DNA from: Minisyncoccota bacterium
GTDB taxonomy: Bacteria > Patescibacteriota > Minisyncoccia > UBA6257 > 2-01-FULL-56-20
Length of the DNA: 64,000 nt
Direction: 5' to 3'
NCBI GenBank assembly: GCA_035541435.1
Contig: DATKNL010000009.1
Coordinates: 14,687 to 78,686, forward strand
This document shows, in pieces, positions 14,212 to 23,532 of this stretch. A program made the position numbers and the translations under genes. The notes below the pieces were generated by a model. That model made no database searches and had not been told where the DNA came from. It saw only the letters and a program-made list of their open reading frames with translations. The stretch's first letter is position 1. Every line of letters begins with the position of its first letter.

Positions 14212-17200
14212 TTACGAACCCGACGGGAAGACGATCGACGCAGAGAGCGGAAGTGCGACGTTGCCAGGAAGGATCTGCGGGATGCTCGTGATGAGCAGGC
14301 CCTGCGAATCCAAGCTGTCGACATACTGCATGTCCGTCGTGTTCTGCAGGTTGACCGTCAACCCGGGCGAGATACCGTTGGCCGGGGTCGCCGTGCCGGC
14401 GTTGTCGTTCACGCGAACCGTGAAGGTGACGTTGCCGCCATTGCTGATCTGGGCGAACGGAGAGCTCGTGGCGAAAACCCATGTCTTCGAGGCTCCGCCG
14501 GCAACACCGGCAGTTGAGCTCGTGGAAAGGATTCCATCGGTCGTGATCGACTGACCGTTCTGGTCAATGAGATCGACGCCCTGCATGAAGGTCGAAGTCG
14601 CGCTCGTAGTAGCGATAAGCGTACCTGTGAAGGTAAGCGTAAGCTGCTTCACGGCCGCGGCGCCAGCGCTGTTCGCGCTAAACGTCACCGTCGCCATGTT
14701 GTCGTTCGTCACGCGCGAGTTGTGCGTGCCGACCGACGCGAGCTGCGGGACAAGGGTCGTCCGGAGCACCGTCTGGTTGTTGCCAGAAGCGCTCTGGAGC
14801 GTCACGTTGGCCGTGTGGTTCGAAGTCGCGCCGCGGGCCACAACGGCGAGGGCCGTCGTGTTGTTGATCGAATCCGTCGTCGTCATGATGCCGAAGCTTG
14901 ACGTCGAATTGTCGGTGATCGAACCGCCCGTGAACGAACCCGCATCACCCTTGAGCGAGACCGAGAGCGAACCGCCAGCCGGAACGACCAACGGGTTGCT
15001 CAGGCTCGTGAACTGGTAGATGTAACCGGTTCCCGAAGCATCGATCGTCGGGCTGCCAGCCGTGCCGAGAAGCGTCGAGCCGTTATAGAGGCTCAGGTTG
15101 CTGAAGGCAGCCTTGACGCTTGTACTCACAACGGAATCAACGACATTGAGCTGCGTGATCTTCACGTTCTCGACGTTCGACGTTTCCGTAACGCGGAAGA
15201 CGGCGAGCGTGTTGCCAGGCGAGTTCTGGACGATCTGGCCAGCCGGAGGATTCGTGGAATCCGCGCTGATGGTGATCGACGGGGTTCCGTTGAATGCCAG
15301 GTTCTGACCAGGCGTCGAGTTGCAGGAAACCGAGCTAAACGAGGTAGCGCCGGATCCCGTGCAGCCTGCGAGGGACGTGATGTTCGAGACCGTACCCGTC
15401 GCGTTCGACAAGGTGTCGGCATAGACGTCGACAGTCGCCGTACCGCCGACCGGAACGCTGAATTGCGCACCCGAGAAGGTGTAGGTCTGACCGCCGGCCA
15501 CCGAACCGATCGTCGAACCGAACTGGGTGCCGTTCACGAGCACATGGAGGTTCTGCAGGTAGTTGCTCGCCCCGCTGGGGAGAGACACCTGGACGTTGTT
15601 CACGTTCACGCCTTCAGCCGACGAGGCCTGGAAAACGTACGAACCGATGCGCTGGTTGGTGACACCAGCCGAGACGTTCTGCTGACCCAAGGCGTTGTTC
15701 GCGCTCACCGAAAGGCTGTTGGCAGCCATCGAGAGGGCGACACCGTTCGCGCCAGCGATATTGGTCGTCTGGCTCGAAATGACACCCTGAAGAGGCGCGT
15801 TGGTCTCAGGAAGCAAATTCGCGGTGACCGTCGAGAAGTTCGCGGTCGTCTGGATATCTGCCTTGAGCGAGAGGACGCGGTTGGTGTTCGCAGGGATCTG
15901 ATAGTTGATCTGCGAACCCGACGTGCCGAAGCAGTCGTAGTAGGTCAGCGTCTGAAGCGTGGTCGTAGCAGCCGGCCACGAACCACCAGACGTGTATCCA
16001 CCACCAACAGTGGCATCACAGCCGGTATTCCCGGACGGAGGCGTGTTGATCGTGGAACCGACCTGGTTACCGGCATCATCCGTGAGCGAAATGTTCTTCA
16101 CGACCATCCCCAATGAGGTGTCGGAAGCGACATTCAATCCTGTGAATGCCAGGTCGAAGCCAGCCCAGCGAAGACGGACAGGCTCACCGGACGCATAGAC
16201 GTCATATTTCGCGAGCGTGACCTGCGAGGTTCCCCGCGCAATGTTGCCCGTCGGAGTATTAGCATCCTGCGTAACAGTGATCTGACCCTGCTGAATGCTG
16301 ACCTGCGTGCCGATACCGCTCGTGTTAACGACGGTAACCGGCACGTTGTACTGGCTGTCAATAGCCAGCACGTCGTAACCGTTCAAAACTTCGAACTGGA
16401 AGTTCATGAAAGGCGACCCCATCACATCCGCAAAGACCTGGATGCTGTTGTTGCCCGTCGAGAGCTTCACCGGCGAAGCCGAAAGGTCGAAATAGGCCAT
16501 GCCGTTCTGCGAAATGGACGACAAGGTCTTACCCGCCTGGGTTCCATTGATCGTCAGCTTCACGTTCTGAAGGTTGGCGAGGTTCGCCGAACCGATAACG
16601 TGGAAGTTGACGCCCTGGAGCCAGACCGGGTTGTTGTTGGCGTTGAACTGCCAGGCGCCCACGAGGTTTGCCTGCGTTCCGGCCGTCACCTGCGTGCCGA
16701 TCGAAGACGAGGTAATCGTGAGCGAGGCGAGGTTCGGATTCGAAACAGTCGTCACCGTGAAGGAGCCGCTGTTCACCGGGAACACACCCGTCGCCGTCAC
16801 CGCCGTGTTGCTGCCGGTCCACGCCGAAACATCAGACGCGCTCTGAAGCGAGAACGCCGTGGTGTTGCCAGCCGCGAGACCGCCAGCGACATCAATCGCG
16901 AGCGTCACATTCGCGGTCTGACCGGCTCCGATGGAGAGGTTGAGACCTGCGAAATCGATGACACCCTGGTTGATGGAATTGTACTGCGCGATGACCTGAC
17001 CGTTCTGGGTAAGGTATGCGCCCGAAATCGAGTTATCCGCCAAGACACCCGTCTTGTGGAACTTCAATTCCGAAACCGTCACCGCGCCGGAGTTGCCGGC
17101 CGTGAGGTTGACCGAGAGGACCGGGACGCGAGCCGCACCGTAGCAAGTGCCCGTGCACGTGCTGGGGGTCGAGATCAGCGAGCCCGAAACCGGGTTGTTT

Positions 17201-17730
17201 GCCGCCACGCTCACCGCAAGACCGGTGGCCGGAGCAACAACGACGCCGCCACCCGTGCCCGTGCCGGTGCCCGTACCTGTTCCGGTACCGGTGCCCGTGC
17301 CCGTGCTGGCCATGGCGTTAACGAATGCCCTGGTCTTAGGACCAAAGTATCCGGCTGCAGGGGAAATCGAGTTCGCCGCCTGGAAAGCCGCCAACGCCTT
17401 CTGAGTGAGGGCGCCGAAATAGGCCGTCGGAGCGGAAACCTTGAGATAACCCTTTGCGATCAGCATCTGCTGCAGCGAGGTGACGTCCGCGCCAGTCGAA
17501 CCCACGGTGAGGTCGTGAGTGAAACTGTAGGACATCATCGAGCCTGAGCTCGAACCTCCTGCATTGAGCTGACCCTGCAGCTGTGCGATCTGCTGCTGCA
17601 ACTGCGTAATCATCGCCTGAAGATCAGTCGCTGATTGAGCGTTTGCGAGCGGCATCGCAGCAACTCCCAGCATCGACAAAACTGTCGTTGCCGTGAGCGC
17701 CGCACCTAAAACTTTCTTAGTAATGCTCAT
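14212..17730 (-). CDS. Large secreted cell-surface protein (1172 aa): signal peptide, coiled coil, peptidoglycan-binding domain, (TG)n linker, then many Ig-like/beta-sandwich repeats. S-layer or adhesin-like
   Basis: Signal peptide MSITKKVLGAALTATTVLSMLGVAAMPLANA. PG_binding_1-like segment LTVGSTGADVTSLQQMLIAKGYL...YFGALTQKALAAFQAANSI. TGTGTGTGTGTGTGTGTG linker. Ser/Thr/Asn/Gly/Val-rich body. Confidence 0.8.
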   Translation of the reverse strand: MSITKKVLGAALTATTVLSMLGVAAMPLANAQSATDLQAMITQLQQQIAQLQGQLNAGGSSSGSMMSYSFTHDLTVGSTGADVTSLQQMLIAKGYLKVSAPTAYFGALTQKALAAFQAANSISPAAGYFGPKTRAFVNAMASTGTGTGTGTGTGTGTGTGGGVVVAPATGLAVSVAANNPVSGSLISTPSTCTGTCYGAARVPVLSVNLTAGNSGAVTVSELKFHKTGVLADNSISGAYLTQNGQVIAQYNSINQGVIDFAGLNLSIGAGQTANVTLAIDVAGGLAAGNTTAFSLQSASDVSAWTGSNTAVTATGVFPVNSGSFTVTTVSNPNLASLTITSSSIGTQVTAGTQANLVGAWQFNANNNPVWLQGVNFHVIGSANLANLQNVKLTINGTQAGKTLSSISQNGMAYFDLSASPVKLSTGNNSIQVFADVMGSPFMNFQFEVLNGYDVLAIDSQYNVPVTVVNTSGIGTQVSIQQGQITVTQDANTPTGNIARGTSQVTLAKYDVYASGEPVRLRWAGFDLAFTGLNVASDTSLGMVVKNISLTDDAGNQVGSTINTPPSGNTGCDATVGGGYTSGGSWPAATTTLQTLTYYDCFGTSGSQINYQIPANTNRVLSLKADIQTTANFSTVTANLLPETNAPLQGVISSQTTNIAGANGVALSMAANSLSVSANNALGQQNVSAGVTNQRIGSYVFQASSAEGVNVNNVQVSLPSGASNYLQNLHVLVNGTQFGSTIGSVAGGQTYTFSGAQFSVPVGGTATVDVYADTLSNATGTVSNITSLAGCTGSGATSFSSVSCNSTPGQNLAFNGTPSITISADSTNPPAGQIVQNSPGNTLAVFRVTETSNVENVKITQLNVVDSVVSTSVKAAFSNLSLYNGSTLLGTAGSPTIDASGTGYIYQFTSLSNPLVVPAGGSLSVSLKGDAGSFTGGSITDNSTSSFGIMTTTDSINNTTALAVVARGATSNHTANVTLQSASGNNQTVLRTTLVPQLASVGTHNSRVTNDNMATVTFSANSAGAAAVKQLTLTFTGTLIATTSATSTFMQGVDLIDQNGQSITTDGILSTSSTAGVAGGASKTWVFATSSPFAQISNGGNVTFTVRVNDNAGTATPANGISPGLTVNLQNTTDMQYVDSLDSQGLLITSIPQILPGNVALPLSASIVFPSGS
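17255..17312. repeat. Hexanucleotide tandem repeat (GGCACN/GGTACC-like) x ~9, encoding the (Thr-Gly)n linker of the surface protein
   Basis: Sequence gtgcccgtgccggtgcccgtacctgttccggtaccggtgcccgtgcccgt. Potentially length-variable (slipped-strand). Confidence 0.7.
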
Positions 17731-18179
17731 TTTAATTTATTGTTTGCGACATTTGATTTGATTATCGACCATGCGATCCCTTGCGGAATCGAATGACGTC
17801 GACCTTTTCCGTATGTCCAGCCGTACTTTTGCAGCGTGACTGAGGGCCACTCGGCAAAAGCACGGCTGGGCTCCGTTTCTTAATTGATTTCTGGATCGCT
17901 CGCCATCTTCATTCGCGATCACATCCGCAGTGAGGTTAGGACGGATCGTCGAAATCGGATGACGAACGAGATCTGTATCTTATAAAAGAAAAAGTCCGCT
18001 CTCTCATGAGGCAGACTCAAAATGCATGCATACTCCAGACCCAGGCCAATCCTTAATTGTCTTGCGGATCGACCGTTCCCTTCGCATTTTGATACCGCCT
18101 CACACGGTACCTTTACGTTAGATTATAACGTGGGCTCTTTGGAAAAGGTTACCCCCGTTATCCACTGTTTTCAAGGGTT

Positions 18180-18932
18180 TTACACAACCGGCATCGGTCC
18201 CGGCAGCGTCTGCCTGATCCGATAGAAAACCGCCGGGCCGCCCGTCCCCACCCGATCGATCAGGCCCTGCTCGACGAGCGTCTGCAGGTCATAGCGCAGG
18301 GTGCGCTCGCTCGCATTCGGCAGGATCTCTTGGATGTCCTTCATCCGGCAATTTCCCATTTGCCGGATTCGATCCAAAATTGCCGATTGCCGGATTGCCG
18401 ATTTCAGGATGCCGTTGATCTCGCTTTCCTGACCCTGCTTTTCGATGGGATCATTTTTTGGCTCCGAGGCTGCCTCCTCAACCATATTGCCGGATTCCTT
18501 TTCTTGCCGGATTGCCGGATTGGCATTGCCGGATTTCTCGCCCGTGTCGAAATTGCCGGATGAAAAGATTGATGCCAAATCGGGTTCCGGCCGGGACAAA
18601 ATTGCCGGATCATGGGATACCCCGTCGGCAACGCTCATGACGACGCTCAAAGCCCTGCCGAACGCCTGGATCTCCCCCAGCATGACGTCGCCGTTTGCCT
18701 GGTTCATCAGGCTGACATCCGAGGCGAACCGGGTGAAATATTCGAGTGTCGAGACGTTCTTCAGGGCACCCGCAAAATCGGTGCCGGCGACCGCTCCCAA
18801 AAGGGATACGGCAGCCGCTCTATAATATCCGGCAAAACCGGCATCGGTCATGACGCCGGAAATCCTGAAAACCGCATAAGCGATCTCATAGGCCTTCTTG
18901 AGCAGCCATGAGCTATTGCCGGATTCTTGCAT
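18180..18932 (-). CDS. Putative transcriptional regulator: N-terminal globular domain, low-complexity linker, C-terminal winged helix-turn-helix
   Basis: C-terminus ILPNASERTLRYDLQTLVEQGLIDRVGTGGPAVFYRI is wHTH-like. The track ORF begins with TTG; the first ATG is M8 (18932). The gene body and its promoter carry the TTGCCGGAT motif array. Confidence 0.5.
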   Translation of the reverse strand: MQESGNSSWLLKKAYEIAYAVFRISGVMTDAGFAGYYRAAAVSLLGAVAGTDFAGALKNVSTLEYFTRFASDVSLMNQANGDVMLGEIQAFGRALSVVMSVADGVSHDPAILSRPEPDLASIFSSGNFDTGEKSGNANPAIRQEKESGNMVEEAASEPKNDPIEKQGQESEINGILKSAIRQSAILDRIRQMGNCRMKDIQEILPNASERTLRYDLQTLVEQGLIDRVGTGGPAVFYRIRQTLPGPMPVV

Positions 18933-19497
18933 GCCGCAAGTATAATCCGGCAATTCTCGAAAATCAAGCTATTTTATGGGAACGACCCAGTCGCCCACGA
19001 AACGCATGAAATCGTCGCGCCGGTCCTCCATCTGGTATTCCTGAAGATGCCACTTGGGGTGGCATTCGGGAGTCCATTCGTAATGGCCGCGGACCTCGCG
19101 GTCCTTGAAAACCCTGAGGTGATACTGCTTTTCGAAGCCGTCGAGGCGGCGGACGCTGATGATCTGCTCGTCGTCAATCCAGGCGACGAAGTGGTTGCCG
19201 AACTGCTGGCCCTCGAGATATTTCACGAAATCCGCGACTTTGACGTCGGGTGCGAGCTTGCCGATCACGAACTCCTGGCGGCTGACGCCGTGGCGGATGA
19301 AACCGGTCTTCAAAAGGAAGTCCCTCCCCCATTCGAAACCATCCGAGATGATGTATTTCCAAAGGAAATACTTGATTTTCCTTGTCAGCCCTTCCGGATA
19401 GGGCAAAACCGAATCGGCGATTCGGCTCGTAAGGGTCTCGTCCATAAGTACCCCTCCACCCTACCATAAATAACCGGCAATTTCCAGGTCTTGCCGG
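18343..19497. promoter_or_regulatory. Array of >=14 copies of motif (A)ATTGCCGGAT(T) in both orientations, including three palindromic operators: ATCCGGCAA-N8-TTGCCGGAT (18343-18367), ATTGCCGGATT-N18-AATCCGGCAAT (18915-18954, over the wHTH gene start/-10), and CCGGCAA-N10-TTGCCGG (19474-19497, just upstream of the 158-aa gene)
   Basis: Copies at ~18343, 18359, 18379-18404 (three tandem), 18486, 18503, 18511, 18525, 18551, 18601, 18827 (reverse), 18915, 18944 (reverse), 19474 (reverse), 19491. Spacing is irregular and not a multiple of 3, so the repeats are DNA-level rather than protein repeats. Confidence 0.6.
18969..19445 (-). CDS. Hypothetical cytoplasmic protein (158 aa) with the palindromic TTGCCGG operator in its promoter
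   Basis: Balanced composition (MDETLTSRIADSVLPYPEGLTRKIKYFLWKYIISDGFEWGRDFLLK...). RBS GGAGGGG 7 nt upstream of the ATG. Confidence 0.55.
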   Translation of the reverse strand: MDETLTSRIADSVLPYPEGLTRKIKYFLWKYIISDGFEWGRDFLLKTGFIRHGVSRQEFVIGKLAPDVKVADFVKYLEGQQFGNHFVAWIDDEQIISVRRLDGFEKQYHLRVFKDREVRGHYEWTPECHPKWHLQEYQMEDRRDDFMRFVGDWVVPIK

Positions 19498-19509
19498 GTG
19501 CCGGAAAGG

Positions 19510-20838
19510 CTACTGATATTGGATATAGCTCGGCTCCGGCGTGAGCTTGAGGAGCTGTGCCGGGCCGAGAAGATAGCTCCCGGGGACCTTCACGTCGTTC
19601 TTATAGAAGATCTTGAACCCGGTGAACTGCACCGGCTCGGGCTCGATGAAGTCCTGATAGGTGCCGATCTTCTGGGACGGCGGCCCGAACCCGTCCATGT
19701 CCATCACGACCTGCACCTCGGGCAGCGGGGTGATGTCCTTATAGTTCGTGACCATGGCCTGGGTGAACCGGTGGACGACCAGGATCTTCGGGGGCAGGTT
19801 GTTGTCGTGGACGATGGTCGCGAGGTATCGGGCGGCGAAGTCGATGTTCGAGGCGTCGAGCGTCCCGATGACCGTCCCCGGCTGCCGGCCGTTGTGCATG
19901 GCGAATTCGGGATCGATCGAGAGCTCCACGTTCGGCAGCTTGAGGTACTGGGCAAGGAGCGGGACCTCGGTTTCGACGCTGCTCAAGCCGACCTGCACGT
20001 CGAGGAACACGATGCCGTGCAGGGCGTTCGCCATGTCGATCGCCTTCTGGACCTGGTCTGGCGGCATGCGCAGCCGGTATTTGCCGTCGGGGCCGGGACT
20101 CCCCTGCGCCGAGACCACGATGTAGTCGAGGGCGGGAATGACCGGCGTCGAGGGGTCGGCGGCGGCCCACATGGCCGAGGTCGAGGCGAGCTTCGCCATG
20201 ACGACGTCGGGGGCGAATTCGCCCAAGATGCCCATCTGGGTCGAATAGAAGTTGCCGTAATAGGCGACGATGCGGTTGAAGGGCAGGAGCGCTCCGGGCA
20301 GCGGATAGGGGGCGCCCGCCACCGGCCAGCCGCTCACGAGCTTCTTATAGGTGGTCGTCGTCATGACGATGGTCGACGTTCCGAACTGCACGGTCGAGGT
20401 CACCGTCACCTTCTTCACCGGAACATCGGCGATCGTGGTCATCTTCGCGTCATAGGCGGCGGTATCGAGCGCGGTCCCGGCGGGTTCGGTGCCGAAGGGC
20501 GCCTGGCTCGTCCCGTCGGCCATCATGGCCAGGATCTCGGAACTGGTCGGCGTGAATGTGAGCGGTTTGCCGGCTCCAGTCGGCGTCGCCCCCTGGTGAG
20601 ACCCCGTTTGGGCGGTTGTTGTTGTCGTCGTGGTGGTGGTCGTGGCCGTTGTTCCCGTCGCTAGGGCCGTCGTCCCGGTCGCGCCGCCGGCCTGCGCGGT
20701 CGTTGTCGCGGCATCCGAAACCGCTTTACCGCTCGTGAGGGTAAGCGTCTTTGAGGTACTGCCGGCATACCAAACGACCCCGACGATGCAGAGGGCGATC
20801 ACGACGATGCCGATCAATTGTTTCGAGCCACCGCTCAT
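19510..20838 (-). CDS. Membrane-anchored extracytoplasmic protein: N-terminal TM, poly-Thr linker, C-terminal globular domain (possible glycoside-hydrolase-like/DUF4015-like)
   Basis: IGIVVIALCIVGVVWYA TM helix, then TTATTTTTTTTTT, then a ~300-aa domain (IVFLDVQVG, IDPEF). Confidence 0.6.
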   Translation of the reverse strand: MSGGSKQLIGIVVIALCIVGVVWYAGSTSKTLTLTSGKAVSDAATTTAQAGGATGTTALATGTTATTTTTTTTTTAQTGSHQGATPTGAGKPLTFTPTSSEILAMMADGTSQAPFGTEPAGTALDTAAYDAKMTTIADVPVKKVTVTSTVQFGTSTIVMTTTTYKKLVSGWPVAGAPYPLPGALLPFNRIVAYYGNFYSTQMGILGEFAPDVVMAKLASTSAMWAAADPSTPVIPALDYIVVSAQGSPGPDGKYRLRMPPDQVQKAIDMANALHGIVFLDVQVGLSSVETEVPLLAQYLKLPNVELSIDPEFAMHNGRQPGTVIGTLDASNIDFAARYLATIVHDNNLPPKILVVHRFTQAMVTNYKDITPLPEVQVVMDMDGFGPPSQKIGTYQDFIEPEPVQFTGFKIFYKNDVKVPGSYLLGPAQLLKLTPEPSYIQYQ

Positions 20839-20912
20839 TCCTCATATCTTATGCGAAAGCGGTTTTGGTGGATAGGGTGCAAAACCGTCGCGACGCCAGA
20901 TTCGCGCGTGTG

Positions 20913-20944
20913 AAAAATCGAAAGGACCCGTTGCCGGGTCCTTT
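20913..20944 (-). terminator. Rho-independent terminator downstream of the ABC permease gene
   Basis: Hairpin AAAGGACCCG-TTGC-CGGGTCCTTT, with a T-tract on the minus strand. Confidence 0.55.
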
Positions 20945-21074
20945 CGTCCAAACGAGGCTGGCCTGGTCACCACCAAAGCTCATTCAGTATGAGTTCGGCA
21001 ACAACCGAAGTCAATCATGATTTAAGGATTTTTTAACAATTCCTTTTCGCGGTGGAGGTGCGGGGATGCCTTCC

Positions 21075-22790
21075 CTACCCGATATCCTCGACGAACGGAT
21101 TGAACGTGCCGAGATCCTGCGAGAGCGTCGCGGCGGCGGCAATGATGAAAAGCGCCGAGAGCGCGACGAAGGCGGCGAGAGGCGCGAGCGCGCCGACGAG
21201 CAGCGCCTGATAGAAGATCCACGTCCCGAGCGCGCCATACCCGAGCGACAGGAACGTGAACCCGAGGCCGGGCAGCGACGTGCTCACGATCTCGGGATCA
21301 TCCGACTCGGTGTTCGGGAACCGCGCACCGAGCGCGAGGCCGAACGTCGTGATGGCGAGCACCATCACCGCGATCGTCGCGAGGAAAAGCCCGACCTGCA
21401 CGATCGGCACGCCGAGGATCGACGCGTTCGCGATGCCGAGTCCGAGGCCGAAGACCAGGAAGACCGCGCTATAGAACGCGAGCTTCGAGAAGAAGACCGC
21501 GCGCGGCGAGATCGGCGCCGTCCCGAGGATCCACCGCATCCGCCGGTCGACGCTGAACGAGGGCAGGGCGAACCGCAGCGAGAACGTGCTCGTGAAGAAC
21601 ACCGTGGTCGCGACCTGCAGCGACTGGATGGCGGCGACGATGGTCGCGGTGCTCACGCCGTATTCCGCGGAGTTGCGGTGCAGAAAGAGGTTGAGGGCGC
21701 TCTGGATGATCCAGAGGCCGAGCATGAAAAGAATCCACAGAAGGTCGCGCAGGCTGCGGAAGGTGGTGACCGCCTCCTTTTCGAAAATCGCGCCGATCGG
21801 CGACCTGAAATAGCGCGGGAACGCCCGGGGCGGCTCGTTCGCGGCCGTCCGCGCGGCGGCATCCGCGTCGTCACCGAGGGCGGTCCGCGCCTCGAAGTCC
21901 TGCTCCTGCAGCCGCTGCCACACCGGCAGATAGGCGAACGACAGGAGCCAGATGAGGACGCCGACGACCGCGACGGCGAGCGCAAGGGCGGCAAGATAGC
22001 TCCACGCGAGGAGCCAGGCGTGGTCCTGGAGCGCGAGCATGATGAGCGCCATGCCGTGCGTCGGAACGTACCAGAACGCCGCCGTGATCCCCGAGACGTC
22101 CGCCTGCGCCGCGGCGAGCGGGCCCGAGACGAAGAGCCGGACGATGTCCATGTCCGCGATCCTGCGCGCCATGAAATAGGTCGCGCCGCCGACGAGCGCG
22201 GCTGCGGCGAGCGCAAGCCACTTCATCTGAAGGAGGCCTGCCTTCGCTCCCTGCGCGACATAGAAGAGCGCGGCAAGCGCCATGATGAAGACGATCGCCG
22301 AACCCGACGCCCCCGCCGCGAGGAGCACGAGCCCGACGAGCGCCGAAAGGACAGCGGCCGCTCCCCCGCCGTACACCCCGGCGAGCGCGATGACGGCCGG
22401 CAGGCCGATCACGAGAAGCGGCCAGAGCGACGACTCGAAGATGCGCAGGATCGAACCGACGAGGAGAATCTTATAGTTCGGCGTCGCCGCGACCCACTCG
22501 TTCGCGCCGGCGCGGAAGAGCGTGAAGAGCGCAGAGATCACCGCGCTCACGAACATGAGATAACCGAGCACGAGGAAGAAGACCTCGTAGGTATAGAGCG
22601 GGAGCGTCTCGCGGCCATAGGCTTCGTGCTGCATGAGCGTGAAGCCGGCGCGGACGAAGAAGAAGATCCCGACCGCGATCGCGACGACGAGCAGCATGAA
22701 GAGCGCGATCGTGATCGCCTTCGCGACGGTCCGGGTGCCCATATAGCGCCTGAACCCGAGTCCGGAATATTTGAAGAGGAGCAAAAGCAT
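21075..22790 (-). CDS. ABC transporter permease (multi-TM, ~12 TM)
   Basis: Highly hydrophobic 571-aa protein immediately downstream of the ABC ATPase gene, same strand. Confidence 0.65.
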   Translation of the reverse strand: MLLLLFKYSGLGFRRYMGTRTVAKAITIALFMLLVVAIAVGIFFFVRAGFTLMQHEAYGRETLPLYTYEVFFLVLGYLMFVSAVISALFTLFRAGANEWVAATPNYKILLVGSILRIFESSLWPLLVIGLPAVIALAGVYGGGAAAVLSALVGLVLLAAGASGSAIVFIMALAALFYVAQGAKAGLLQMKWLALAAAALVGGATYFMARRIADMDIVRLFVSGPLAAAQADVSGITAAFWYVPTHGMALIMLALQDHAWLLAWSYLAALALAVAVVGVLIWLLSFAYLPVWQRLQEQDFEARTALGDDADAAARTAANEPPRAFPRYFRSPIGAIFEKEAVTTFRSLRDLLWILFMLGLWIIQSALNLFLHRNSAEYGVSTATIVAAIQSLQVATTVFFTSTFSLRFALPSFSVDRRMRWILGTAPISPRAVFFSKLAFYSAVFLVFGLGLGIANASILGVPIVQVGLFLATIAVMVLAITTFGLALGARFPNTESDDPEIVSTSLPGLGFTFLSLGYGALGTWIFYQALLVGALAPLAAFVALSALFIIAAAATLSQDLGTFNPFVEDIG

Positions 22791-22800
22791 GGGGCGGCGC

Positions 22801-23532
22801 TTAGGAACGTTCCGCGATCGCGACGTAGACGTCCTCGAGGCTCGCGTCGTGCGCGCAGTGCGCCTGCGCGCGGAGCTCGTCCATCGTTCCGACCGCGGCG
22901 AGGCGGCCGCGGCTCATGATGCCGATGCGGGTCGCGATCTCCTGCGCGAAGGAAAGGGTGTGCGTCGCGATGAGCGCCGCGTGGCCGCCCTCCCCCGCGA
23001 ACTTCGTGAACAGCCCCTTCGCCGTGCGGGCGCTCAGGGGGTCGAGGCCGACGATCGGCTCGTCGACGAGGAGCAGCTTCGGCTTGTGGAGCAGTGCGGC
23101 GAGGATGGAGAACTTCTGCTTGTTGCCGCGCGAATAGGTTTCGAAATAATGCTTCTCGATGCCTTCGAGCCTGAACGTGCCGAGCAGGTCGCGCACGGCC
23201 TCCATGCGTTCCGCTTCGGGAACGTCGAACAGCGATCCGACGAAGTGCAGGAACTGCTCCCCCGTCATGCCGGGCCAGGCCGAGGGATCGTCGGGGATGT
23301 ACCCGATCATCGCCTTCGTCTCGCGCGGCGACGTCACGACATCCTTCCCGCCCACGGTGACCGTGCCGCCGTCGGGCCGCAGAAGGCCGGCGATCGACTT
23401 GATGATCGTCGTCTTTCCCGCGCCGTTCGGACCGATGAGGCAGAAGACCTCCCCGTCCTTCACCTCGAACGAGACGCCCTTCACGGCATCGAGGTCGCCA
23501 AATGACTTCGAAAGCGATTGTACGTTCAGCAT
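22801..23532 (-). CDS. ABC transporter ATP-binding protein
   Basis: Walker A GPNGAGKTT, signature YSRGNKQKF, Walker B LLLVDEP. Confidence 0.9.
   Translation of the reverse strand: MLNVQSLSKSFGDLDAVKGVSFEVKDGEVFCLIGPNGAGKTTIIKSIAGLLRPDGGTVTVGGKDVVTSPRETKAMIGYIPDDPSAWPGMTGEQFLHFVGSLFDVPEAERMEAVRDLLGTFRLEGIEKHYFETYSRGNKQKFSILAALLHKPKLLLVDEPIVGLDPLSARTAKGLFTKFAGEGGHAALIATHTLSFAQEIATRIGIMSRGRLAAVGTMDELRAQAHCAHDASLEDVYVAIAERS

Follow-up and report, generated by a model that had tools for sequence, protein, structure and literature searches.

A probably autoregulatory winged-helix protein of Paceibacteria whose gene may double as an array of its own operators

A gene encoding a winged-helix regulator, found throughout the Paceibacteria, was shown to carry within its own coding sequence and promoter a dense array of a short DNA word, TTGCCGGAT/ATCCGGCAA. 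The explanation that we favor, with a probability of roughly 0.6, is that the product is an autorepressor and that its gene serves at the same time as a set of auxiliary operators. The features on which this reading is built are listed in Table 1.

Table 1. Features of the regulator locus and its surroundings (positions are those of the window)
Feature	Position	Strand	Basis or remark
Giant surface-protein gene: 1172-aa secreted protein with a peptidoglycan-binding domain (Pfam PG_binding_1)	14212..17730	-	
Conserved leader, putatively structured, separating the regulator from the giant gene	17731..18179	-	Own promoter-like element
Regulator gene, 250 aa	18180..18932	-	ORF list, Pfam, AlphaFold2 model, homologue alignment
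Site cluster in the segment coding for the first wHTH helix (KSAIRQSAILDRIRQMGNCRM)	18343..18402	-	Sequence; family-wide density
Palindrome ATCCGGCAA-N8-TTGCCGGAT, within the regulator gene where the wHTH-coding part begins	18343-18368		
Linker-coding DNA with six exact same-orientation copies (18487, 18504, 18512, 18526, 18553, 18602)	18423..18626	-	Differing frames
Lone copy in opposite orientation, within the DNA coding for the N-domain (peptide GFAGY)	18827..18835	-	Exact match
Candidate operator O1, ATTGCCGGATT-N18-AATCCGGCAAT	18915-18954	.	Exact matches at 18916 and 18945
Sigma-70-type promoter TTGATT-17-TATACT	18939..18967	-	Promoter scan, independent
158-aa gene, no Pfam/NCBIfam family	18969..19445	-	Neighbor in this genome only
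Palindrome CCGGCAA-N10-TTGCCGG, 29-52 nt 5' of the ATG of the 158-aa gene	19474-19497		

Distribution of the word

Fifteen exact copies of the 9-mer were detected in the window (the whole 64-kb stretch of DNA that was analyzed), against 0.70 expected; among 100 shuffled sequences the largest count was 4, and 15 was never reached. Twelve of the copies are located within 18343-18953, and the other three are singletons elsewhere in the 64 kb. The initial annotation had counted at least 14 copies, a figure that stands when near-copies are included, i.e., two one-mismatch copies at 19472 (minus strand) and 19491 (plus strand) and two 7-8-mers lacking one G (TTGCCGA and TTGCCGAT) at 18380 and 18395, and that is too high for exact copies only. 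The three palindromes that it described are all present.

The copies in the linker-coding DNA all have one orientation, with ATCCGGCAA on the coding strand. Same-orientation copies are spaced by 27, 100, 17, 8, 14, 27, and 49 nt, in agreement with the irregular direct repeats noticed previously in this segment; their reading frames therefore differ, and the word is translated as SGN, PAI, or IRQ in the protein of the window. The cluster at the first wHTH helix is composed of a tandem triplet, ATCGGCA-ATCCGGCA-ATCGGCAA, followed by the intragenic palindrome.

Comparison of 80 related Paceibacteria loci revealed that the regulator gene is approximately 97 times denser in the word than its flanks (304 copies in 71.7 kb of gene regions vs. 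53 in 1.21 Mb of flanking DNA). The density of the 7-mer forms a single peak extending from -400 to +800, with a maximum of 25 per kb vs. a background of about 1.2, to which it returns in the downstream leader and at clpB. The first-wHTH-helix segment is the densest part across the family (47.6 copies per kb), and the N-domain-coding DNA is also enriched (9.4 per kb, with the same background of about 1.2). The median number of core copies (CGGCAA) per gene is 12, and copy number and position vary among close relatives; in some relatives, isolated copies are also found 180-600 nt ahead of the regulator gene. The initial annotation had raised the question whether the array is unique; it is a family-wide trait, found in regulators of Paceibacteria that fall into about 350 sequence clusters. 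Nor does the word behave as a genome-wide REP-like element in the DNA covered, given the three singletons elsewhere in the window and the background density across the 1.21 Mb of flanks. In the window and the +/-10-kb flanks (about 20 kb per genome), no targets beyond the regulator gene were found, and 92 site pairs were counted outside the gene (about 71 expected). Literature searches with the word returned only unrelated primers and sequences, and those for DeoR proteins of Parcubacteria only false matches.

Tandem copies are mostly spaced by 7-8 bp, with no more than 2-3 adjacent units and irregular spacers. A contingency locus undergoing slipped-strand phase variation is not supported, since such short runs do not form a long perfect tandem tract.

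Selection on the DNA and co-variation

Sense copies in the family occupy all three reading frames (254, 196, and 174), and the same 9-mer is retained where the regulator proteins share merely 30-50% identity. In the peptide IRQSGNCR, which overlaps the word, synonymous codons are nearly fixed: CGG in 39 of 42 cases (background 0.12), CAA in 42 of 42 (0.23), TCC in 30 of 30 (0.17), and AAT in 41 of 42 (0.34). The control peptide SERT(I/L)RYDLQ of the same genes is as conserved as the word-overlapping peptides, yet its synonymous codons are scrambled (17 CAG and 17 CAA for Q, and a mixture for R). The frozen codons under the word and the use of three frames show selection at the level of DNA, as had been proposed from the spacing of the repeats. 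The conserved peptides molded by the word are M-x-E-S-G-K at the N-terminus and SAIRQSAIL-x-RIRQSGNCR at the start of the wHTH, an effect on the protein that had previously escaped notice.

At the sequence level, the promoter copies and the intragenic copies change jointly between lineages, the variant present in both places being ATGCGGCAA in L005/8/9/11, TTGCAGGA in L031, and TTCCGGAAA in L051. The predicted recognition helix, SERT(I/L)RYDL, is near-invariant across the family, and so is the core of the word. Two genomes of a single lineage (L051 and L089) encode SERTIRNDL and contain TTCCGGAAA or TTCCGGCAA in place of the usual word, so that a Y-to-N substitution tracks a change of the word; the ATG- and ATT- variants have no clear counterpart in the wHTH. 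Residue-by-residue co-variation between the wHTH and the word variants is thus weak, being confined to Y-to-N in these two genomes.

Domain architecture of the regulator

The regulator was called by NCBI as a protein of 223 aa beginning at M28 (P0001); homologues nevertheless align from residue 1 of the 250-aa form (ATG at 18932). In the AlphaFold2 model, it comprises (i) a four-helix bundle (aa 5-102), (ii) a linker of about 65 aa (aa 103-170), disordered over aa 125-170, and (iii) a winged helix (aa 171-240). The assignment of the latter is supported by a match to Pfam HTH_DeoR (PF08220; aa 181-228, 30.2 bits vs. a cut-off of 21), and the same family is precomputed for nearly all regulator homologues. 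In this protein, the HTH is C-terminal and no DeoRC domain was matched (E<=0.1), and the NCBIfam DeoR/GlpR models match the HTH only, far under their cut-offs. Canonical DeoR regulators are alike in having the same type of winged helix, with SERT(I/L)RYDL as the third helix, and differ in that their HTH is N-terminal and is combined with the DeoRC sugar-phosphate domain instead of a four-helix bundle. Other fold similarities of the wing-helix region, to AspA-type centromere binders, are generic.

The N-terminal domain, a feature overlooked in the initial annotation, is predicted to be an up-down bundle of about 100 aa that superposes on structures of Avd and of proteins encoded by 23S rRNA intervening sequences (PF05635; PDB 4dwl, 8ub7, 2gsc, and 2rld, the latter two listed as chains A-E). 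No Pfam match was obtained for 37 N-domains at E<=1, hence membership of PF05635 was not recovered by sequence, and a profile search of the N-domain against PDB sequences gave only spurious DARPin matches, an artifact of short repeats. Avd is a homopentamer that works with a reverse transcriptase; no retroelement was found near the regulator in the related loci. Avd and the intervening-sequence proteins are standalone, with no detectable sequence relation to the regulator, and we know of no description of an Avd-like bundle fused to a wHTH. From this similarity of predicted folds, one may guess that the regulator is oligomeric.

Promoter geometry and proposed autorepression

The -10 element of the regulator promoter (TATACT, 18944..18939, minus strand) is followed by the ATG (18932..18930) after only 6 nt, and the mRNA is therefore predicted to be leaderless. 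The candidate operator O1 spans both the -10 element and the ATG; one of its arms forms the end of the -35/-10 spacer and the other forms codons 3-6 (E-S-G-N). The typical layout in the family is TTGCAA-[TTGCCGGATTGCCGGAT]-TATAAT-N7-ATG aaa ga ATCCGGCAA. Among 55 related loci, the word abuts the -10 element, with the ATG 6-10 nt further on (mode 7), in 31; a tandem pair of words occupies the -35/-10 spacer in 25, and a sense copy lies within 30 nt past the ATG in 29. The geometry of autorepression at a near-leaderless promoter, as originally recognized for this gene, is thus recurrent, and it would be consistent with repression.

Our interpretation is as follows. A transcription factor distributed across the Paceibacteria would recognize ATCCGGCAA through its core, CGGCAA; we infer that this factor is the regulator itself, for which the confinement of the word to its gene, the joint change of promoter and intragenic copies, and the altered words of the two SERTIRNDL genomes are indirect signs. 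A sigma-70-type promoter would produce the leaderless regulator mRNA. Because words fill the spacer and codons 3-6, bound protein would shut out RNA polymerase, resulting in negative autoregulation. About 500 bp downstream, the DNA coding for the first wHTH helix would provide a second conserved cluster, composed of tandem copies and a palindrome, and the weakly constrained linker-coding DNA between the two clusters would act as a variable array. The intragenic copies could then function as auxiliary operators, several of which would be held at once by an oligomer that is multivalent and has its DNA-binding domains on flexible tethers. Such multi-site occupancy would raise the local concentration of the protein and may cause looping or a roadblock, making autorepression tight. 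Against this scheme, a tandem spacing of 7-8 bp is too tight for a winged helix to sit on every copy at once.

A more elaborate version of this scheme is rather speculative, and we consider it improbable as a whole. It holds that a pentameric Avd-like hub, with five winged helices on long flexible tethers, gathers the array of the regulator gene into a single nucleoprotein particle. In that case, the gene would serve as template and at the same time as a calibrated sink (a titration device) setting a sharp threshold, the level of the regulator would be coupled to the giant-gene promoter, and the linker sequence would be dictated by the cis-regulatory DNA code and not by protein function.

Neighboring genes and control of the giant surface-protein gene

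The regulator is part of a conserved chromosomal arrangement, HtrA-ClpB-membrane protein-regulator-giant protein-HU, with all genes on one strand. Complete chromosomes containing the locus include OY970354.1, OY970126.1, OY970358.1, OY970175.1, and OY970382.1. ClpB and the polytopic membrane protein are its conserved upstream partners in other genomes. This synteny raised the idea of a heat-shock repressor of clpB/htrA, for which no support was obtained, as the word is at background density upstream of both genes.

The 158-aa protein, for which no Pfam or NCBIfam match was obtained, indeed has no recognizable family. A self-contained module formed by the regulator and this gene, as envisaged initially, is contradicted by the absence of its homologues from all 80 related loci. 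Of the 29 homologues found, three were looked up and sit in unrelated neighborhoods, and the word is absent upstream of homologues elsewhere; the gene was therefore dismissed as a partner of the regulator. The palindrome preceding it is confined to this genome; either it belongs to the site cluster of the regulator as an outlier, or the 158-aa gene has been recruited locally.

The position of the regulator just upstream of the giant surface-protein gene was confirmed, and the two genes are arranged in this order on the same strand in 71 of the 80 loci. In the leader that separates them, two hairpins are predicted, one with GUGAGG as its loop and one resembling a terminator; RNAalifold detected invariant pairs only (GUGAGG with CCUCAC, and the terminator-like hairpin), and no Rfam family was found for the regulator gene and leader at gathering or E<=5 thresholds. 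The leader has no exact 9-mer and one 7-mer (TTGCCGA), i.e., a word density equal to the background.

Among the alternatives, the one that survives best, although we regard it as clearly less probable than autorepression through intragenic operators, is that the array is chiefly an upstream control region of the giant-gene promoter that merely happens to be located in the regulator gene, autoregulation being secondary. It is suggested by the conserved gene order, by the start of the promoter directly after the stop codon of the regulator, and by the densest cluster, which falls within the 3' half of the regulator gene at a distance of about 230-450 bp upstream from the leader promoter. In three loci (L030, L035, and L051), which have a longer gene-promoter spacer, extra copies even lie directly next to the GGTAACC box in the promoter of the giant gene. 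However, it is the promoter of the regulator itself that shows the clearest operator geometry; in most loci, neither the leader nor the promoter within it contains a copy, and over 200 bp separate the giant-gene promoter from the nearest copy. A distance of at least 230 bp is far for direct control of a promoter without looping. Within the autorepressor model, the extra copies beside the downstream promoter in some lineages point to an additional effect of this protein on the giant gene.

Other functions considered for the array

The next reading treats the array as a centromere-like or nucleoid-organizing site, in which a winged-helix adaptor coats direct repeats in and beside its own gene. 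TubR-tubC, ParR-parC, and ParB with parS inside spo0J are centromere adaptors acting on repeat arrays, and what they share with the system proposed here is a small DNA-binding protein whose gene contains or adjoins an array of direct repeats, the same sites serving for autoregulation. Many short same-orientation repeats in a single cluster per locus, with no other such cluster in the flanks, and a winged helix tethered to a possible oligomerization hub would fit such a function. We nevertheless hold it to be quite unlikely: Pfam searches of the neighbors identified no adjacent ParA, ParM, or TubZ-type NTPase gene, those neighbors belong to a chromosomal, housekeeping context, promoter occlusion is the strongest conserved feature, and the AspA-type fold matches carry little weight, being generic. 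The likeness to iteron, partition-site, or phage-operator arrays drawn in the initial annotation was likewise not upheld, as there are no replicon, partition, or phage genes nearby, the synteny is chromosomal and on one strand, and the wHTH is of the DeoR type.

Slightly less plausible still is a role of the word in RNA, where repeats of AUCCGGCAA and a few complementary UUGCCGGAU would form alternative hairpins or bind protein, thereby controlling translation or stability of the leaderless mRNA. The bias of family linkers toward the sense form (137 vs. 35 antisense copies) may be read in this way, and sense and antisense copies of one transcript could pair, e.g., across the intragenic palindrome; the arms of the candidate pairings are near-invariant. 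In addition, the wHTH matches the RNase R winged-helix family at a borderline score. Against this, the -35/-10 spacer holds those opposite-orientation copies that are conserved best; since it precedes the predicted start, they would be absent from the mRNA. Coding constraint alone could prefer the sense form (SGN/PAI/IRQ) over the antisense form (LPD/CRI).

The least probable reading is that the repeats arose neutrally in unconstrained linker DNA, through replication slippage or gene conversion, and are without function, or else that they are iterons of an origin embedded in an initiator gene, within the part coding for its linker, as is the case for the O gene of phage lambda. It has in its favor this precedent, the dominance of 7-8-bp tandem units, and the differences in copy number and position between close relatives, but is opposed by the persistence of the 9-mer in the genes of diverged proteins while synonymous sites of the control peptide are scrambled, by copies located in the spacer of the promoter and in coding segments that are conserved, and by a chromosomal locus with co-directional genes on both sides and no adjacent replication gene. 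A replication origin at the array was in addition rejected on the basis of the cumulative GC skew of the window, which turns near 24 kb, away from the array.

Relation to known regulatory systems

Auxiliary operators in coding DNA are known from the lac (O2 in lacZ) and gal (OI in galE) systems and from purR (a second operator), and several operators are joined by looping in the DeoR/GlpR group; PurR is autoregulated, with its second operator in its own coding region. These systems resemble the proposed one in having a main operator that overlaps the promoter, further operators hundreds of bp into the coding sequence, and a multivalent repressor. They possess one or two auxiliary sites, whereas the regulator gene contains about a dozen, in three frames. 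Unlike in lac, gal, and purR, the word fills a linker-coding segment and partly dictates the protein sequence, and this is conserved across a bacterial class. The 8-bp met-boxes of MetJ and the 6-bp hexamer arrays of Fur, itself a winged-helix protein, are short tandem units bound cooperatively. They are comparable with regard to head-to-tail units (7-8 bp here), variable copy number, and the proposed repression by coating of a promoter, and differ in that their boxes are located in the promoters of a regulon and not in their own coding sequence, and in their protein families.

As far as we know, Paceibacteria are not culturable and their gene regulation is almost wholly undescribed; for these uncultured bacteria, a regulator and its probable recognition word are now available as a pair. 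Since it adjoins a giant cell-surface gene with its own, previously undescribed and putatively structured leader, the regulator may be an entry point to envelope control in these episymbiotic organisms.

The locus is also an unusually clear natural case of overlapping codes, in which a regulatory DNA word is kept in a coding sequence in three frames, fixing synonymous codons in conserved peptides and setting much of the amino-acid make-up of the linker (SGN, PAI, IRQ). Repeat peptides in linkers and conservation of synonymous sites should accordingly be read with caution, as they can stem from constraint on DNA and not on protein.

Distribution of the Word in the Window

The 9-mer TTGCCGGAT (ATCCGGCAA on the opposite strand; core CGGCAA), considered here as the operator unit and referred to as the word, occurs in 15 exact copies in the 64-kb window, compared with a mean of 0.70 in dinucleotide-preserving shuffles, none of which (0/100) reached 15. 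Twelve of these copies fall within 18343-18953, and the coding strand of the regulator gene carries nine copies as ATCCGGCAA and three as TTGCCGGAT. The remaining exact copies (7825, 11268 and 46739) are singletons, one-mismatch copies are located at 19472 and 19491, and the shortened forms TTGCCGA and TTGCCGAT lie on either side of the 18387 copy. Outside the regulator gene, the number of site pairs is near expectation (92 vs. ~71). The dense motif array described in the initial annotation is thereby confirmed, its three palindromes match their description there exactly, and the trait reaches well past the window.

Features of the regulator locus in the window
Feature	Position	Strand	Basis
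Regulator gene (250 aa)	18180..18932	minus	direct reading and ORF
Promoter TTGATT-17-TATACT	18967..18939	minus	consensus scan
Palindrome O1, at the regulator promoter	18915-18954		direct sequence reading
Palindrome inside the regulator gene	18343-18368		direct sequence reading
Palindrome in front of the 158-aa gene	19474-19497		direct sequence reading
Conserved structured leader or small RNA, upstream of the giant gene	17731-18179	minus	

Conservation in the Regulator Family

A protein search retrieved >200 homologues of the regulator (30-55% identity), the named ones being Candidatus Paceibacterota DeoR-family regulators, and a full scan of 1.84 billion representatives yielded 354 clusters at E<=1e-30. 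For comparison, 80 loci were sampled from species-representative genomes (Paceibacterota, Parcubacteria, Liptonbacteria, Jorgensenbacteria, Harrisonbacteria and Minisyncoccia); the word scan covered ~20 kb per genome (genomes of 0.8-0.9 Mb) plus the 64-kb window. ATCCGGCAA or its complement has 304 occurrences in the regulator-gene regions (71.7 kb) and 53 in the flanks (1.21 Mb), i.e., a ~97-fold enrichment, with a median of 12 copies per regulator gene. The 7-mer profile shows a single peak between -400 and +800 around the start codon, reaching 25 per kb at +400..+600 over a background of ~1.2 per kb, and drops back to background in the intergenic region that follows the regulator, across the giant gene and in the vicinity of clpB. 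Word density per kb is 20.7 in the promoter segment, 9.4 in the N-domain, 16.5 in the linker, 47.6 in the first helix of the winged helix-turn-helix (wHTH) and 8.6 in its remainder. Among the papers of the library searched, there was no mention of the word in a regulatory context or of the regulator family.

In several genomes, single coding-strand copies of TTGCCGGAT recur 2.2-3.2 kb ahead of the regulator start (L002 -2240, L004 -2237, L012 -2679, L022 -3034, L054 -3190, L057 -3085 and L061 -3161). By approximate placement they map within the clpB gene span, where a conserved peptide probably happens to spell the word, and they account for part of the 53-copy flank count. Stray copies are also present 180-600 nt upstream of the regulator in some relatives.

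Promoter Geometry and Selection on the DNA

In the window, the regulator ATG lies 6 nt past the -10 box, and the mRNA would therefore be leaderless. The typical upstream layout in the family is cTTGCAA-ttgccggattgccggat-TATAAT-N7-ATG aaa ga atccggcaaa. In 31 of the 55 loci with a resolved start, a word lies directly against the -10 box, with the ATG 6-10 nt beyond the box (mode 7). The spacer holds a tandem pair of copies in 25 of these, and 29 have a sense copy <=30 nt past the ATG. A protein occupying the promoter copies would mask the start point together with the -35/-10 spacer, a classical autorepressor layout. The autoregulation proposed in the initial annotation is supported.

Neighbouring sense copies in the window's regulator gene are spaced irregularly (27, 100, 17, 8, 14, 27 and 49 nt), and the word therefore occupies all three frames, being translated as SGN, PAI or IRQ; the variable linkers of homologues are rich in SGN/SGK, PAI/PAK and IRQ. 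Sense copies within the coding sequences of the family are nearly equally distributed among the three frames (254, 196 and 174). In most members the conserved peptide IRQSGNCR is coded as ATC CGG CAA TCC GGC AAT TGC CGG, i.e., two tandem words leading into the palindrome CCGGCAATTGCCGG. Among 42 loci, its codons are CGG in 39/42 (share in the neighbouring giant gene, used as background, 0.12), CAA in 42/42 (0.23), TCC in 30/30 (0.17), GGC in 39/42 (0.40), AAT in 41/42 (0.34) and TGC in 41/42 (0.55). The control peptide SERT(I/L)RYDLQ, equally conserved in the same genes, has scrambled synonymous codons (Q, 17 CAG and 17 CAA; Y, 17/17; both R mixed). Synonymous sites in the family are therefore free to change except under the word, where they are frozen, and selection on its copies acts at the DNA level.

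Lineage Variants and the Reader of the Word

The dominant form of the word is ATGCGGCAA in L005, L008/9, L011, L025 and L048, ATTCGGCAA in L047, L049, L054, L057, L071, L077 and L078, TCCTGCAA in L031, and TTCCGGAAA in L051. Where legible, the promoter copy matches the intragenic form (TTGCCGCAT in L005/8/9/11, TTGCAGGAT in L031 and TTTCCGGAAT in L051); since both sets change together, one reader recognises both. Both the CGGCAA core of the word and SERT(I/L)RYDL, the predicted recognition helix, are nearly invariant. The variant SERTIRNDL is present in two genomes, both with changed words: L051 (TTCCGGAAA x11) and L089 (TTCCGGCAA x4 and TTCCGGAAA x3). This pairing implicates the encoded wHTH in reading the word, but amounts to a single evolutionary event.

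In this sub-lineage (L051:6234-7890 and L089:380-1543), the word has become self-complementary, TTCCGGAAA (TTTCCGGAAA), and the otherwise invariant Tyr of the third wHTH helix is altered (SERTIRYDL to SERTIRNDL). The IRQSGNCR segment of L051 lacks the word and reads IREAGDCR.

Regulator Protein

The sole Pfam match of the regulator is a DeoR-type helix-turn-helix (aa 181-228), and no effector domain was found by Pfam. An AlphaFold2 model (18 homologues) comprises a confident four-helix bundle (aa 5-102; pLDDT 94 when modelled alone), a disordered segment (aa 125-170; pLDDT below 50) and a winged helix (aa 171-240). Sequence-profile searches showed no relation of the bundle to the Avd/23S-IVS family (PF05635), and its likeness to these proteins is a predicted resemblance of fold and not demonstrated membership. 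Avd/23S-IVS proteins crystallise as pentamers, and the fold-search results list their structures as chains A-E; with these pentameric fold relatives as the sole basis, we suspect that the regulator forms a multivalent oligomer.

The public annotation (P0001) begins the regulator at Met28, giving 223 aa, which removes the first helix of the bundle and the codons overlapping the operator. The 250-aa form is supported by homologues and by the promoter.

Proposed Mechanism and Alternatives

We consider the regulator to be an autorepressor whose gene doubles as a bank of auxiliary operators (probability about 0.6). O1 at the promoter would block RNA polymerase. Further copies of the multivalent protein would be kept close by a conserved cluster at about +500 and by the variable array separating it from O1; such nearby copies could permit looping, cooperative coating or a roadblock. 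Repressors with intragenic auxiliary operators are already known, and the present case is in a barely studied lineage. The closest precedents for the auxiliary operators are lac O2, gal OI, the purR intragenic operator and DeoR/GlpR looping, and for the 7-8-bp head-to-tail units the MetJ met-boxes and Fur hexamer arrays. Compared with these, it is unusual that the sites are so numerous, extend across the coding sequence in all frames, leave an imprint on the protein sequence and are conserved across a bacterial class. The finding is also a striking example of overlapping codes.

It is unlikely that the array serves instead to control the giant gene from upstream. A centromere-like or nucleoid site is much less probable, and the iteron or partition array envisaged in the initial annotation is not supported. 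Marginally less credible still is an RNA-level element; conserved copies in the promoter spacer, which is not transcribed, argue against it. The least plausible reading, neutral slippage or an iteron origin, is opposed by the codon test, by the synteny of the locus on the chromosome and by a GC-skew turning point that lies near 24 kb and not at the array.

Gene Neighbourhood, Giant Gene and Its Leader

The conserved one-strand gene order is HtrA, ClpB, a 235-aa polytopic membrane protein, the regulator, a 300-550-bp intergenic region, a ~1150-aa protein with a signal peptide and PG_binding_1 domain (the giant protein), and HU; the giant protein, ClpB and the membrane protein are present in 71/80, 69/80 and 60/80 loci, respectively. 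The window retains the giant gene (14212..17730). Upstream of the regulator it carries the 158-aa gene, a 442-aa gene without family and an ABC-transporter pair, none of which was found in the other loci (80 compared), and ClpB and the 235-aa protein are absent from the whole 64 kb. Comparison of 18969-23532 with positions -6000..0 of L001-L080 points to a recent local rearrangement that would have replaced HtrA, ClpB and the membrane protein. Of the 29 homologues of the 158-aa protein, the three inspected adjoin glyoxalase, ApbE and NAD-binding genes, with no upstream copy of the word. The 158-aa protein is thus not a conserved partner, and the two-gene module initially postulated is not supported; the palindrome ahead of its gene is local to the window genome.

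In most loci, the regulator stop codon is directly followed by a promoter-like element (GGTAACCTTTCC-N12-CGTTATAAT), with no copy of the word nearby. L030, L035 and L051 have a longer spacer and carry word copies directly at the GGTAACC box (e.g., TTGCCGGGTAACC), which suggests that the regulator may also act on this promoter. The leader has equivalents in 60+ loci (e.g., L001:10727-11047), and Rfam gave no family match. Its promoter-like element is followed by a hairpin GGTTCRG-(U)GUGAGG-CTGAACC with a co-varying stem (GGTACCG/CGGTATC in the window, GGTTCTGC/GCAGAATC in L001) and in some cases an inserted extra hairpin. The distal part consists of a variable stretch, the terminator-like GCCUCGC-AAAA-GCGAG-UUUUUU, a CCUCAC box that complements the loop of the hairpin, the boxes AAAGGUCGACG and GGUCGAUA, and finally an AUG without an obvious Shine-Dalgarno sequence. 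The giant protein, syntenic across Paceibacteria, has a single PG_binding_1 domain and no other recognised family, and may be a major envelope protein or an S-layer-like one; in the window's copy, the PG-binding domain is followed by a Thr-Gly repeat (TGTGTG...).
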